Shown: positions 26,782 to 31,003, counted from the stretch's first letter. The stretch: 64,000 bases of DNA from a virus (IMGVR_UViG_3300029288_000080:96001-160000); one strand, 5' to 3'. Made by a program: numbers and translations. The notes: generated by a model not told the origin, from the letters alone.

Positions 26782-27699
26782 ATGACGACCAAGTACCCCA
26801 CCAAGCACGATGTCCGCGAGCACCATGGCAATCTTTACCGTGCGGCCAAGCAATGGCTGGAGCAGCCCGACAGCTGGTCCCCCGACTGGACCGACGACTG
26901 GGTCGCGGCTGCTGCTTTCCTGAACCAGCAGCCCGACGGCCGGATGTTCCATGAGACCCCCTGGACCCCCAAGGGGGTCATGGGGTTGTTCTCCCAATAC
27001 CGGTTTGACGACCATGGTAATGTGGTCCCGACCCCCAGGGCTCCGCGACAGTCCCGCAAGCCCCTGGGGTTCCGGCGGACTGCCACGGGTTACCGTCGGT
27101 ACCTGAAGCCCGGGACCAGTCAGTACCGCAAGGTCATGGCTTCGGTGGTCCAGGCATTCCAGTGCGGTGGCACCGCTGCCGAAGCAGCCAAGATTCTGGA
27201 GACCAGTGACGCCAACCACCTCAAGAACTACCGGCAGGGCCGCCCCTGGACTGCCCCGGTGGTCACGAGCCTGATGTACCGACTGCGTCATGGCAATCCC
27301 GGTCTGCATGATCGCCTGGTCACCGAGATCCCGACCAATGTGGTACATAGGGATCCCAAGACCAAGAAGGAGCAGGTGGTCAACACGACCAAGCTGTTCG
27401 ACACCCTGGCCAAGGAGTTTGCGCCGCCTGATGCACCTGTGATCGACGCGTTCACGACGCCCAAGCAGGAGTTTGCCTTCTACGCACCGTCACCGACGGC
27501 CAAGCAGGAGCCCAGCAAGCCCAAGGGCCGCGTCATGAAAATCCAGATCCGCGAGGCCGGTGACCTTCTCCAAGTGTTCCGGACCCATAGTGGTACCTTG
27601 GTCCTGACGGTCAAGTCCACCGACCAGCCAGGTGCCCTGATGTCCGCGGTCGACCAGTTCTGCCAGGGCCTCGGCGTCACGATCCCTAAGGTGCTGTAG
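26782..27699 (+). CDS. Hypothetical protein
   Basis: AAGGA RBS, 305 aa. Confidence 0.7.
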   Translation: MTTKYPTKHDVREHHGNLYRAAKQWLEQPDSWSPDWTDDWVAAAAFLNQQPDGRMFHETPWTPKGVMGLFSQYRFDDHGNVVPTPRAPRQSRKPLGFRRTATGYRRYLKPGTSQYRKVMASVVQAFQCGGTAAEAAKILETSDANHLKNYRQGRPWTAPVVTSLMYRLRHGNPGLHDRLVTEIPTNVVHRDPKTKKEQVVNTTKLFDTLAKEFAPPDAPVIDAFTTPKQEFAFYAPSPTAKQEPSKPKGRVMKIQIREAGDLLQVFRTHSGTLVLTVKSTDQPGALMSAVDQFCQGLGVTIPKVL

Positions 27700-27815
27700 T
27701 GAAATCTCCTTGGCCCACTTGGCTGTCCAGGACTTCCCAGCGCCTGATCTACGTGCTCTGGGTCATCGTGGTGATCGCTGGAATCGTGATCCTTGTTCTT
27801 CGCGGCACCTGGTAG
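27699..27815 (+). CDS. Small membrane protein
   Basis: 38 aa with one TM helix. Confidence 0.4.
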   Translation: MKSPWPTWLSRTSQRLIYVLWVIVVIAGIVILVLRGTW

Positions 27816-27947
27816 CGCTTGCTCACTCCCCAAGACATTGCCCAGCGGATTCAGCAGCATGACCTGAACAGAGCCCGCCGCAAGTCGCGGGGCTTCAGCC
27901 CCGGCGAATAGGCGCGGCTTTTCTTCGGCTTCAGCCAGAAATAGGTC

Positions 27948-27984
27948 TTGACAGCACTGTCTACAGGCACTATAGTGTAGACAG
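27948..27984 (+). promoter_or_regulatory. Sigma70 promoter with overlapping inverted-repeat operator
   Basis: TTGACA-17-TATAGT; CTGTCTACA/TGTAGACAG inverted repeat. Confidence 0.7.
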
Positions 27985-28431
27985 GACGGTAGACACAAAG
28001 GAGAAATAAATGAGAACTTTATACGTCGTGCTTGGTTTTGCTGCGCTAACGTTTGTGGGTTGTGGTAAGAGTCCTGAGGCGAGAAGGGAAGAGCTGATTA
28101 GTCTAGTAGAACGTAAGGTCCAGCATGACCTGCCCTATGAAGACCACAGCACCAGAATTGTTCATGCAAAAATTAGCGATCCTTACCTATGTGTCTATGT
28201 AAATGCAGCAGGAGATCCGCTAGCCAGATACGCAAGCAGCTTTGCTCAAGAACAGGACGTATTGGGCGCGGCAAAGCAAGTTGGCCTTACTACGATCGTG
28301 ATCCACAACGGTCTTAGATCTAATGAAATCGACACGGTAACCGGAACGTCTCAGATGCGTACTGATGCTCTACCCAGCGGATGCAAGTAGACAGGACAGT
28401 AGACATAAAGGAGGAATAAATGAGAACATTA
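27977..28431 (+). repeat. 45-bp direct repeat (27977-28021 and 28387-28431) covering the leader, RBS and first codons of both cargo genes
   Basis: 41 of 45 positions identical. Confidence 0.9.
28010..28390 (+). CDS. Cargo lipoprotein 1
   Basis: Signal peptide with lipobox FVGC; low GC. Confidence 0.7.
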   Translation: MRTLYVVLGFAALTFVGCGKSPEARREELISLVERKVQHDLPYEDHSTRIVHAKISDPYLCVYVNAAGDPLARYASSFAQEQDVLGAAKQVGLTTIVIHNGLRSNEIDTVTGTSQMRTDALPSGCK

Positions 28432-29016
28432 GGTTTTACCTTGTTTTGTCTGTGCTGCCTATCTTGTAAACAGGAGAGTCAATCTGCCGAGAAAGCGGAA
28501 ACTGCTGATGCTGTTGCTCCGACGTGGCAGGAACAAGAAGCACAACGGGATCAGCAAAATCCGCTTGCTTCCGCGGCCTCGATCTACCGTGAGCTAGTTG
28601 ACGCCTACGCGGTGTTGTCTGGCAAGGAAGAGTGCGTGCCCTGCACGCAACTGGTGCAACAGGAGCGTCGTGCTCAGCAAGTTCAACGCGGCGGCACTGA
28701 CGAGCACCGACGCACAGCTTACAGCATCAAGAGTGCGGCCATCAAAGAATGTTGGGGGCATTTTGACGGTTATGAAACCACACGGTTCGATCGCTACCAC
28801 GAGCGCGTAGGGCGTTTTTCACCAGGTCAACACCAGGTTCTTTATCGACTCTTACAGAAGGGTTTGGTGCTATTACGGCCATGTCGAGCTAAATTATGCC
28901 ATTTGGCCAAAGACAATATTAGGCGCGAGGCTGAAGGTAAATGTAATGCACTGGGCGTAGTGCTGCTCGCCGTAGAAAAGGCGCTCAAGCAAGCCGGTGC
29001 ATTCAAAGAGGAATAG
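28420..29016 (+). CDS. Cargo lipoprotein 2 (Cys-rich)
   Basis: Signal peptide with lipobox CLSC; low GC. Confidence 0.7.
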   Translation: MRTLGFTLFCLCCLSCKQESQSAEKAETADAVAPTWQEQEAQRDQQNPLASAASIYRELVDAYAVLSGKEECVPCTQLVQQERRAQQVQRGGTDEHRRTAYSIKSAAIKECWGHFDGYETTRFDRYHERVGRFSPGQHQVLYRLLQKGLVLLRPCRAKLCHLAKDNIRREAEGKCNALGVVLLAVEKALKQAGAFKEE

Positions 29017-29030
29017 GGCCGGTACTCGCC

Positions 29031-29432
29031 ATGGCTAACGCGATGGAATACCAGCGAGACGAGCACCGGGTCCACTTGATCGTGTACCACTTGATCTGGG
29101 TGCCCCGACGCCGTAAAGCCGTGTTGATCGGTGCCGTCGCCCAGGACTGCAAGGCACTGATCGAGCGTAAGTGCGCGGAGCAGGGCTGGACCATCCTGGA
29201 GTTGGCCATTGACCCCGACCACATTCACCTTTTCGTGCGGGCCTGGCCTACCGTGTCGGCCGCCGAGATTATACAGAAGTGCAAGGGGTTGACTAGCCAC
29301 GAGCTTAGAAAGCGACATCCCCAGCTCTTGAAACTGCCGTCACTGTGGACCAGGTCCTACTTTGCCTCCACGGCCGGTAATGTGTCGAGCGAAACCATCC
29401 AACGGTATATCGCGGCTCAGCGTAAATTCTGA
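29031..29432 (+). CDS. tnpA: IS200/IS605 Y1 transposase
   Basis: YHLIW, HUH motif DHIH, LWTRSY, catalytic Tyr in IQRYI. Confidence 0.95.
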   Translation: MANAMEYQRDEHRVHLIVYHLIWVPRRRKAVLIGAVAQDCKALIERKCAEQGWTILELAIDPDHIHLFVRAWPTVSAAEIIQKCKGLTSHELRKRHPQLLKLPSLWTRSYFASTAGNVSSETIQRYIAAQRKF

Positions 29433-30580
29433 TGTTAAAGACCTTCCGCTACCGTCTCTACCCCAGCAAGGCCCAGGCCAAACGCCTGGCCTCGACGCTG
29501 GAGACGTGCCGCCGGGTCTACAACGACTGCTTGGCCGAGCGGAAAGTGGCCTACGAGACCGAAGGCAAGACCATCGGGAAGTTCGAGCAGCTCCGTCACG
29601 TCAAGGAGATCAAAGCGACCAACCCCTATGCCAAAGGAGTCCACAGCCACGTCCTCCAGGTCACGATCTCGGACCTGGATAAAGCGTTCCAAGCATTTTT
29701 CCGTAGGGTCAAGCAGGGCGAAAAGCCCGGCTACCCTAGGTTCAAGGGGCGGGATCGTTTTGACTCGTTCGGGCTGAAAGAACTGGGCAACGGATTTAAG
29801 GTGGACGGCCGACGGCTGAAGATCTCTGGTGTCGGAAGGATCGCGGTCAGGTGGCACCGGGAACTGGAAGGCAAGGTCAAGACTATCCGGTTGGTCCGGG
29901 CCGCGGGCCATTGGTTTGCATGTTTCTCCTGTGAGGTTGCTGTGCAGCCACCGCTGCCCGCGACGGGCAAGAGCGTTGGGCTTGACGTTGGTATCGAGAG
30001 CATCTTGACCACCAGCGATGGCGACAAGGTAGAGAACCCTAGGTGGTACCGTGGCGACCAAGCCAAGCTCAGGGTGGTGCAACGTAGGGTGTCCAGACGA
30101 AAGAAAGGGAGCAGGCGTCGGCGTAAAGCCATCAAGATGCTCCAACGGCACCACGAAAGAACCAAAAATCGGCGAAAGGATTTTTTGGACAAGTTGGCTT
30201 GCACGTTGATCACAACTAACGACGTCATCGCGATCGAAGACTTGCAGGTCACCAATATGGTCAGGAACCACCACCTGGCCAAGAGCATCATGGACGCATC
30301 CTGGGGCTATCTGCGGCAACGACTTGAAGCCAAAGCGGCAGAAGCTGGACGGCAAGTCATCGCGGTACCCCCGGCCTACACGTCCAAATCTTGCTCGGGT
30401 TGTGGCGCTATTTTTGAGGATCTGAAATTAAGCACCAGATGGGTCAAGTGCTGCTGTGGTTTGTCTCTGGACCGCGACCACAACGCTGCCGTCAACATTC
30501 TTAGGAGGGGACACCTCCTTCGGGAGTCAACGTGGGCCGCTCAAGAGCCGTGCGTATCCCGAGAAGCCGCTGGGCTTTAG
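29432..30580 (+). CDS. tnpB: RNA-guided endonuclease TnpB (IS605 type)
   Basis: GLDVG, AIEDL and DRDHNAA; Zn finger; TGATG coupling to tnpA. Confidence 0.95.
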   Translation: MLKTFRYRLYPSKAQAKRLASTLETCRRVYNDCLAERKVAYETEGKTIGKFEQLRHVKEIKATNPYAKGVHSHVLQVTISDLDKAFQAFFRRVKQGEKPGYPRFKGRDRFDSFGLKELGNGFKVDGRRLKISGVGRIAVRWHRELEGKVKTIRLVRAAGHWFACFSCEVAVQPPLPATGKSVGLDVGIESILTTSDGDKVENPRWYRGDQAKLRVVQRRVSRRKKGSRRRRKAIKMLQRHHERTKNRRKDFLDKLACTLITTNDVIAIEDLQVTNMVRNHHLAKSIMDASWGYLRQRLEAKAAEAGRQVIAVPPAYTSKSCSGCGAIFEDLKLSTRWVKCCCGLSLDRDHNAAVNILRRGHLLRESTWAAQEPCVSREAAGL

Positions 30581-31003
30581 CCCATGCGGAGTGTCACCGA
30601 GAGTACCAAACCACTATCATGTGGGCGTTGCTTGACGCGGTCGCGGACGCACATCAGTATGCCGATGTCCAGTTGGTCGAGACCCCCTGGACCCTCGTGG
30701 CCGACGTCGTGGCCTACGGAGTTCAAGGTAAATCCCCTGCCCTGACGACAGCGGCAATTCAATGTCTGGAGCAGGGATTCGCCGCCGTGGGCACCAAGGC
30801 CAGTATTTTATACGACTTGGCTGGTGACGGCAGCACCTGTTGTGTCGTGGATCCAGAAGTTCATGACCCCGAAAAGGTCGTGGCCAGGATGAAAGCCCCG
30901 GTGGTCAGGTATCAAGGCCGGATTTTTATTCGCCGTTAGTCCACGAAACTAAAACAGAATCCTGGGGCACGGCAAAATAAATCCATTTTTCTGTAAAAAA
31001 GAG

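Follow-up and report, generated by a model that had tools for sequence, protein, structure and literature searches.

Does an insertion sequence (IS) of the IS200/IS605 family, the textbook minimal transposon and the family in which TnpB, from which Cas12 descends, is found, always carry its own machinery alone, as it is usually treated? This is the question raised by positions 27864-30597 of a 64,000-nucleotide window of phage DNA (bases 96001-160000 of IMGVR_UViG_3300029288_000080, a linear 177.6-kb IMG/VR virus record estimated to be about 70% complete; positions below are those of the window unless prefixed otherwise). Here two small genes, which we call lipo1 and lipo2, precede tnpA and tnpB genes of IS605 type, and the surroundings are phage-type genes, with a ParB-like gene just downstream. 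The segment is very probably one 2,734-bp IS200/IS605 element, with an IS608-like gene order and with two exported-protein genes between the promoter at its left end (LE) and tnpA. An initial annotation made from the sequence had likewise described a complete IS605 element with two cargo genes inside its ends, and that description is borne out: there is one LE and one right end (RE), and a sister element elsewhere has been inserted as a 2,334-bp unit.

Ends of the element

The ends have the feature that characterizes the IS605 group, namely subterminal imperfect hairpins on the same strand, each preceded by a 4-nt guide, and not terminal inverted repeats. In IS608 the guides AAAG and GAAT go with the cleavage tetranucleotides TTAC and TCAA, and the same pairing rule, which we take to apply here, assigns TGAC to CAAG and TCAC to GAAG. 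The hairpins, both guides and both tetranucleotides are all found at the coordinates first proposed for them (Table 1), and the pattern recurs in relatives. TnpB relatives were gathered from viral contigs and bacterial genomes, the nearest bacterial copies being in Chloroflexota and Planctomycetota, and 15 end hairpins of related elements (six left ends and nine right ends) align without gaps, with 97% of cells paired and compensatory changes in 8/9 pairs. The guide is CAAG in all six left ends of this alignment and GAAG in all nine right ends. TGAC is found 8-11 nt upstream of a conserved CCCGCCGCAAG in 7/7 related left ends, and nearly every RE among the relatives carries GAAG and a terminal TCAC, directly after which the sequences diverge.

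When the guide and hairpin of the 15 aligned ends are made into a covariance model, it has just two significant matches in the window, scoring 39.9 bits at the proposed LE and 47 bits at the proposed RE; the next best match scores 14.5 bits (E 0.23). Applied to the whole phage record the model returns the same two matches only, on one strand and in the correct order, and the end hairpins are more than chance resemblances. No second LE-type hairpin is detected between the cargo genes and tnpA, either in the window or in the whole record; the initial annotation had pointed to such a second left end as something that would speak against a single element.

The LE guide is 65-292 nt from the first gene in about 25 related elements with a detectable LE, compared with 1,150 nt from guide to tnpA here. 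The LE-tnpA spacer of cargo-free relatives is homologous to the segment that follows the LE here (outer stem, T-run, promoter and GTAGACA motif), which puts the cargo between tnpA and the promoter of the element itself; that promoter corresponds in position to the LE-tnpA promoter of the cargo-free relatives L004, L006, L008 and L012. The inverted repeat at the -10 hexamer of this promoter (Table 1) may be an operator-like site for a regulator, and a weaker form of it is present in L032, a contig that carries the sister element described below.

Several candidate matches and similarities were set aside. Contig L078 at first resembled a second case of a long LE (2,467 nt) and was rejected as an ordinary element split by another IS between tnpA and tnpB; at L078:2534-6161, in a Planctomycetaceae metagenome-assembled genome, about 1.9 kb with a reverse-strand open reading frame (ORF) of 415 amino acids lies between the two genes and is apparently a nested IS. 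No LE is found in the 16.7-kb record of L007, the upstream region of which is partly masked. A weak model match at L032:2479-2519 (21 bits) was dismissed, being inside a coding region and without LE context. Two short identities between the left flank and lipo1, one of 12 nt (CAGCATGACCTG, 27855-27866 and 28121-28132) and one of 12/13 nt (27841-27853 and 28373-28385), were treated as coincidence because the flank and lipo1 sequences are each native to their own gene family.

Insertion of a sister element as a unit

The only close lipo2 homologue among 5.8 billion clusters is P0002 (47-49% identity), and its gene is directly upstream of tnpA-tnpB in the separate metagenome contigs L032 to L034. 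This sister element has the order TGAC, LE remnant, promoter and leader as in the window, a lipo2 homologue as its one cargo gene, tnpA, tnpB, and an RE ending in TCAC. In common with the window element it has the LE start, the promoter, a leader identical over 21 nt, and the RE, and the tnpA-tnpB segments are 81% identical in nucleotide sequence.

A look-up of the exact protein encoded just downstream of the sister element identified empty alleles of the same phage in eight contigs that lack the element and have flanks 99.9-100% identical to those of the occupied contigs. In the empty site GGTGCTTGAC is followed directly by TTTTTCCGATTGCG, and in the occupied site 2,334 bp, cargo included, lie between them, starting right after TGAC and ending with TCAC. 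Comparison of empty and occupied contigs thus shows insertion 3' of TGAC without target duplication, and the inserted segment is the whole unit together with its cargo. Occupied and empty alleles are both present in sample 3300063078, and the insertion of the sister element is a polymorphism of very recent date. The sister phage has only two distant proteins in common with the window phage, encoded elsewhere in the sister-phage genome, and the two insertions therefore lie in different phages and at different loci: the lineage has moved into more than one phage, each time at another TGAC and as a unit together with cargo.

TnpA, TnpB and a predicted omegaRNA

Both tnpA and tnpB are intact. TnpA matches the solved structures of IS608 TnpA (E 2.8e-22) and ISDra2 TnpA (E 1e-16), its match to NF033573 exceeds the family cut-off, and alignment to 2ec2 and 2a6m shows conservation of PDHIHLFV (the HUH motif, here HIH) and of WTRSYF, the region of the catalytic tyrosine. 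TnpB matches the ISDra2 TnpB structures 8exa and 8h1j (E 2.4e-63), has the RuvC Asp/Glu/Asp positions and the zinc-finger cysteines, and conserves the motifs DVG, IEDL and DRDHNAA in alignment to a related designed nuclease. The ratio of nonsynonymous to synonymous substitution rates (dN/dS) is 0.02 for tnpA, measured against the sister element, and 0.09 for tnpB; with the value of 0.19 for lipo1, measured against its homologue P0004, these show purifying selection on all three genes.

The consensus fold of 13 relatives contains an omegaRNA-like scaffold in which pairing is kept through double changes in 24/35 pairs; no Rfam family matches anywhere in 27500-31000. A second tnpB-like gene, encoding a protein with about 45% identity to the TnpB of the IS, is located at the end of the phage record outside the window (C1:176670-177437), and no matching end hairpins were found for it.

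Cargo genes and cassette exchange

The GC content of lipo1 and lipo2 is 0.48 and 0.52, that of tnpA/tnpB is 0.58, and that of the flanks is 0.62-0.63. The lipo1 product has a lipobox-like FVGC at residues 15-18 (LMGC in its homologue; both by pattern only), and its AlphaFold2 model is a small alpha/beta domain with a predicted local distance difference test score (pLDDT) of 79; the homologue, P0004, is 61-62% identical. The lipo2 family has six invariant cysteines and a predicted helical-bundle model (pLDDT 81). For the lipo1 model the best VIA-align score is Z 7.0 (the C-terminal domain of a CamS-type lipoprotein, EscJ/PrgK-like rings and pilotins), which is within the range of common alpha/beta arrangements. 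A check for spanins gave only a weak PHROG match of P0004 (phrog_1267, E 0.0014) over residues 1-40, which are signal peptide, and no C-terminal hydrophobic segment is visible in the cargo translations. It is reasonable to suppose that the cargo proteins are extracytoplasmic and envelope-associated. A role in superinfection exclusion or receptor masking is a guess, and one more apt to be wrong than right.

Cargo content varies across the elements, which have no cargo, a lipo2-type gene only, or both lipo1 and lipo2. A 45-nt leader comprising two GTAGACA motifs, a ribosome-binding site (RBS), the ATG and the first four codons heads both cargo genes, and no other cassette of the leader type occurs outside the IS in the window phage. 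The gene for P0004 is in a third phage contig, L035 (JGI 3300037067), where L035:60-1962 contains a tRNA, a promoter and four tandem MKTF... lipoprotein genes with a similar leader, the second of which is the lipo1 homologue. After this gene, at L035:999-1049, there is a 16-codon relic of tnpA (MPDAMEYQRDEHRV...) that is 92% identical to 29038-29074. The combination of a lipo1 homologue and a tnpA relic points to cassette exchange, and L035 appears to be an array of phage lipoprotein cassettes, with exchange of DNA between it and a cargo-bearing IS. Run SRR18595300 contains both an L035-type contig and the window phage. In the window element, in L032 and in the L035 relic, tnpA also has an N-terminal extension of 4 codons that is absent from canonical relatives, and the three therefore descend from a cargo-bearing ancestor.

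P0008, a more distant relative of lipo2 (38%), is encoded by a free-standing, promoter-equipped gene in yet another phage. Between the window element and L032, the nonsynonymous divergence (pN) of lipo2 is 0.33 with synonymous sites saturated, compared with 0.05-0.08 for tnpA and tnpB, which replacement of the cassette by a divergent allele would fit better than simple drift. A search of viral contigs for relatives of lipo2 was negative. The one match to the leader pattern in viral contigs was attributed to chance, as it is inside a coding region of an AT-rich phage. The promoter/operator pattern has no match in the metagenome contigs, although L032 carries it, and that collection must therefore lack the samples concerned.

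Insertion site in the window phage

Comparison with L038 and L039, which are syntenic and free of the IS (their upstream proteins are 68% and 56% identical, respectively), places the element within a conserved phage ORF for about 160 amino acids, which it interrupts 15 codons past the TTG start. The initial annotation had asked whether relatives might have the lipoprotein genes at this site without tnpA and tnpB; in L038 and L039 this locus contains no IS and no lipoprotein genes. The 16-nt flank CGAGAGTACCAAACCA occurs once in the phage record. A search of viral contigs yielded no relatives of either flanking ORF.

Two further observations concern the surroundings. A conserved 38-codon ORF for a hydrophobic peptide (27699-27815) lies between the upstream 305-amino-acid gene and the interrupted ORF, and is also present in L038 and L039. 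On the other side, two independent short assemblies of the window phage, L130 and L131 (ENA ERZ27249449; JGI 3300014208), both start at 30660/30661, 63 nt past the RE, which hints at a branch in the assembly graph and sequence variation near the insertion.

Table 1. Features of the IS605 element and its junctions with the phage genome, in window coordinates.
Feature	Coordinates	Strand	Basis or remarks
TGAC, left cleavage/target tetranucleotide outside the element; predicted target-adjacent motif (TAM) of TnpB	27860..27863	+	Equivalent place in 7/7 related left ends
Left end (LE), first base 27864	27864..27925	+	Covariance model match 27881-27910, 39.9 bits, E 1e-7; same layout in cargo-free relatives
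LE guide CAAG	27881-27884	+	Read from sequence
LE subterminal hairpin, 9 bp and one extrahelical base	27885-27907	+	Hairpin covariation
LE outer stem, then T-rich run	27872-27880 paired with 27911-27919	+	
Strong sigma-70-like promoter TTGACA-17-TATAGT	27948..27976	+	11/12 matches
Perfect 9-bp inverted repeat CTGTCTACA / TGTAGACAG	27957..27984	+	Reaches 3' end of -10 hexamer
Leader repeat copy 1, heading lipo1: two GTAGACA motifs, RBS, ATG, first codons MRTL	27977..28021	+	45 nt, 91% identical to copy 2
Cargo gene 1 (lipo1), 126 amino acids, signal peptide and lipobox-like FVGC	28010..28390	+	ORF; homologue P0004
Leader repeat copy 2, heading lipo2	28387..28431	+	Also provides lipo1 stop codon
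Cargo gene 2 (lipo2), 198 amino acids, hydrophobic N-terminus, CLSC	28420..29016	+	ORF; homologues P0002, P0008
tnpA, Y1 HUH transposase, 133 amino acids	29031..29432	+	PF01797 E 1.7e-34; NF033573 E 3.5e-39
tnpB, RNA-guided nuclease family, 382 amino acids	29432..30580	+	OrfB_IS605, Cas12f1-like_TNB and helix-turn-helix (HTH) domains; NF040570 E 1.5e-96
Predicted omegaRNA scaffold over tnpB 3' end and RE	30434..30597	+	Consensus fold of 13 relatives
Right end (RE)	30563..30597	+	Covariance model match 47 bits, E 2e-9
RE guide GAAG; RE hairpin; terminal TCAC	30563-30566; 30567-30589; 30594-30597	+	
Flank CGAGAGTACCAAACCA, predicted omegaRNA guide	30598..30613	+	Position inferred from known TnpB mechanism
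Interrupted phage ORF, first 15 codons from TTG	27819..27863	+	Homologous to start of ~160-aa ORF in L038, L039
Interrupted phage ORF, last 113 codons	30598..30939	+	Comparison with L038, L039

Proposed mechanism and alternative explanations

We propose that the Y1 transposase TnpA would recognize both subterminal hairpins, cleave 3' of TGAC on the left (guide CAAG) and 3' of TCAC on the right (guide GAAG), and move the whole single strand, cargo included, to a new TGAC without duplicating the target; this draws on knowledge of the family and on the insertion footprint of the sister element. TnpB with an omegaRNA derived from the RE would cut empty sites flanked by TGAC, after which the element would be restored or copied through recombinational repair. 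Homing of this kind, with TGAC as TAM and the 16-nt flank as guide, is predicted from published work on ISDra2 and related systems and from the covarying scaffold. One promoter may serve cargo, tnpA and tnpB, whose co-transcription is suggested by their arrangement, and the cargo would consist of exchangeable cassettes headed by the conserved leader. The window copy may be active at present, and its cargo might alter the host envelope to the benefit of the phage, for example by blocking superinfection. It is conceivable, and we advance it tentatively, that this IS605 lineage serves as an RNA-guided gene drive of natural origin, through which exchangeable cassettes for envelope proteins spread among phages co-infecting the same hosts. 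Once TnpB-omegaRNA had cut an element-free allele flanked by TGAC, recombinational repair would copy the block in full, from LE through cargo to RE; this would work even where the TnpA hairpin has been lost, as in the sister element, and the leader repeat would let lipoprotein cassettes swap with phage lipoprotein arrays.

Several observations weigh against a cleanly inserted, mobile element with lipoprotein cargo. At the junction 27863|30598, 93 nt (31 codons) that are present in both L038 and L039 (L038:1230-1330) are absent. Joining 27863 to 30598 is in frame, as the initial annotation noted in proposing that excision rejoins a phage ORF, yet the rejoined ORF lacks these 31 codons and the gene would not be restored. 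It appears either that insertion was not clean and simple or that the site was altered afterwards: the loss could have followed insertion, for example by deletion between short TGA repeats that preserved TGAC, it could have preceded insertion, or it could have been acquired by recombination from another phage. TGAC and TCAC are both in place at the window copy. The empty site CATGAC/CGAGAG expected at the outset, in its exact form CAGCAGCATGACCGAGAGTACCA, is absent from the metagenome contig collection (comparison with relatives shows the 93-nt gap at this point), and every contig with identical neighbour genes that spans the site carries the IS. The sister element lacks 26 nt that correspond exactly to the TnpA-binding LE hairpin, in the same way in three assemblies (L032:4046-4090 compared with 27864-27925), and that copy is probably no longer a substrate for TnpA; it has kept the guide CAAG and the outer stem, which now form a terminator-like hairpin. 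With this hairpin lost, spread of the sister element, if it continues, must be by recombination or homing. As to the cargo, the initial annotation called both genes low-GC lipoprotein genes; the low GC content holds for both and the lipobox-like motif for lipo1, but lipo2 has a non-canonical lipobox, CLSC (LSAAC in P0002, and none in P0008; by pattern only). The cargo proteins have no match beyond signal-peptide noise in Pfam, PHROGs or NCBIfam, their ESM Atlas scores (<=0.83) are at chance level, and neither model has a match in the Protein Data Bank (PDB) by Foldseek at E <= 0.001.

Some of these observations would also be expected if an IS605-derived cargo element had become a fixed, effectively immobile phage module that is kept for its lipoproteins or for TnpB. 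All site-spanning contigs of the window phage, from at least four samples, carry the element, which is present as a single copy in the phage record; the sister element is already without its LE hairpin; and the target gene is damaged by the 93-nt loss, so that precise excision would not restore it. However, both hairpins, the guides and the cleavage tetranucleotides of the window copy are intact and score like those of its relatives, tnpA is intact with its catalytic motifs, and the sister insertion is polymorphic and very recent; we consider fixation of this kind unlikely. A different role for the passengers, in which they serve the transposon itself by, for example, controlling its transposition or delivery, would suit their location in the tnpA-tnpB operon behind the element promoter and the persistence of the lipo2 family with tnpA/tnpB across ~50% protein divergence. 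It is improbable nonetheless: the export signals in both proteins and the six invariant cysteines of lipo2, which are typical of extracytoplasmic proteins, would place them away from DNA, most relatives transpose without lipo1 or lipo2, and homologues exist as free-standing phage genes.

The segment could, finally, be the product of two unrelated events, with the LE a leftover of an older IS, the lipoprotein genes resident in the phage, and tnpA-tnpB-RE a second element without a left end of its own. Solo or decayed IS200/IS605 ends are common, and the lipo1 and lipo2 families are also found outside IS elements, in L035 and L040. Such an origin is contradicted by the recurrence of the order LE-promoter-leader-cargo-tnpA-tnpB-RE in an unrelated phage, where it is present or absent as one block. 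Syntenic phages have no lipoprotein genes at this site, in cargo-free relatives the LE-tnpA spacer is homologous to the promoter and leader that follow the LE here, and the N-terminal tnpA extension is common to the window element, L032 and the L035 relic; we regard a composite origin as highly improbable, and a single cargo-bearing element as the explanation to be preferred.

Relationship to known systems

IS608 of Helicobacter pylori and ISDra2 of Deinococcus radiodurans are members of the IS605 group with 'peel-and-paste' transposition by a Y1 TnpA and homing by TnpB-omegaRNA. The window element has the same LE-tnpA-tnpB-RE order on one strand and the same subterminal hairpins with an extrahelical base and a 4-nt guide 5' of each, and insertion of its sister 3' of a tetranucleotide without duplication is as in these elements. 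It differs in having two passenger genes, which take up 1.1 kb from the LE promoter to tnpA, in the target and predicted TAM (TGAC), and in the host replicon, a large phage; its TnpB is only distantly related in sequence to that of ISDra2.

Phage 'moron' genes and phage-encoded exclusion lipoproteins, such as Llp of T5 and Cor of phi80 and HK022, offer another comparison. The cargo genes resemble these in being small lipoprotein genes with their own promoter, a GC content below that of the phage, and free-standing or arrayed homologues in other phages, but here they are inside a transposon, and no similarity in sequence or fold to a characterized exclusion protein was found.

The view that IS200/IS605 elements carry no passengers, which the initial annotation treated as established, is too strong. 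Altae-Tran et al. (2023, PNAS; PMC10691335) noted that IS200 and IS605 had not previously been known with cargo and reported cargo on rare occasions, the examples (an HTH protein, an RNA helicase, a WhiA-like protein and unknowns) being mainly in the serine-recombinase branch Ser-3. Those elements and the one described here are alike as TnpB-bearing members of the IS200/IS605/IS607 superfamily with extra genes; the latter differs in its Y1 TnpA, in its exported (lipo)protein cargo in leader-headed cassettes, and in the population evidence from occupied and empty sites in phages. We found no published account of lipoprotein cassettes in an IS605 element with a Y1 TnpA, nor of population evidence from phages for such an element. 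The element is a well-delimited case of extra genes inside the ends of a Y1-TnpA/TnpB element; these genes differ between copies, which have no, one or two cassettes. Its size and layout are a precedent for engineering cargo into single-strand transposons. In phages, co-infection makes nuclease-driven spread plausible, and the lineage could be both a natural test bed for TnpB homing that drives cargo through a virus population and a possible route by which phages trade envelope-acting proteins.

The same idea is known from homing endonuclease genes that are free-standing in phages and bring about co-conversion of the genes beside them (reviewed in PMC13565253), where a nuclease cutting the element-free allele of a co-infecting phage drives linked DNA in. 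The lineage described here would differ from these in that the nuclease would be the RNA-guided TnpB and the linked DNA would lie within defined transposon ends.

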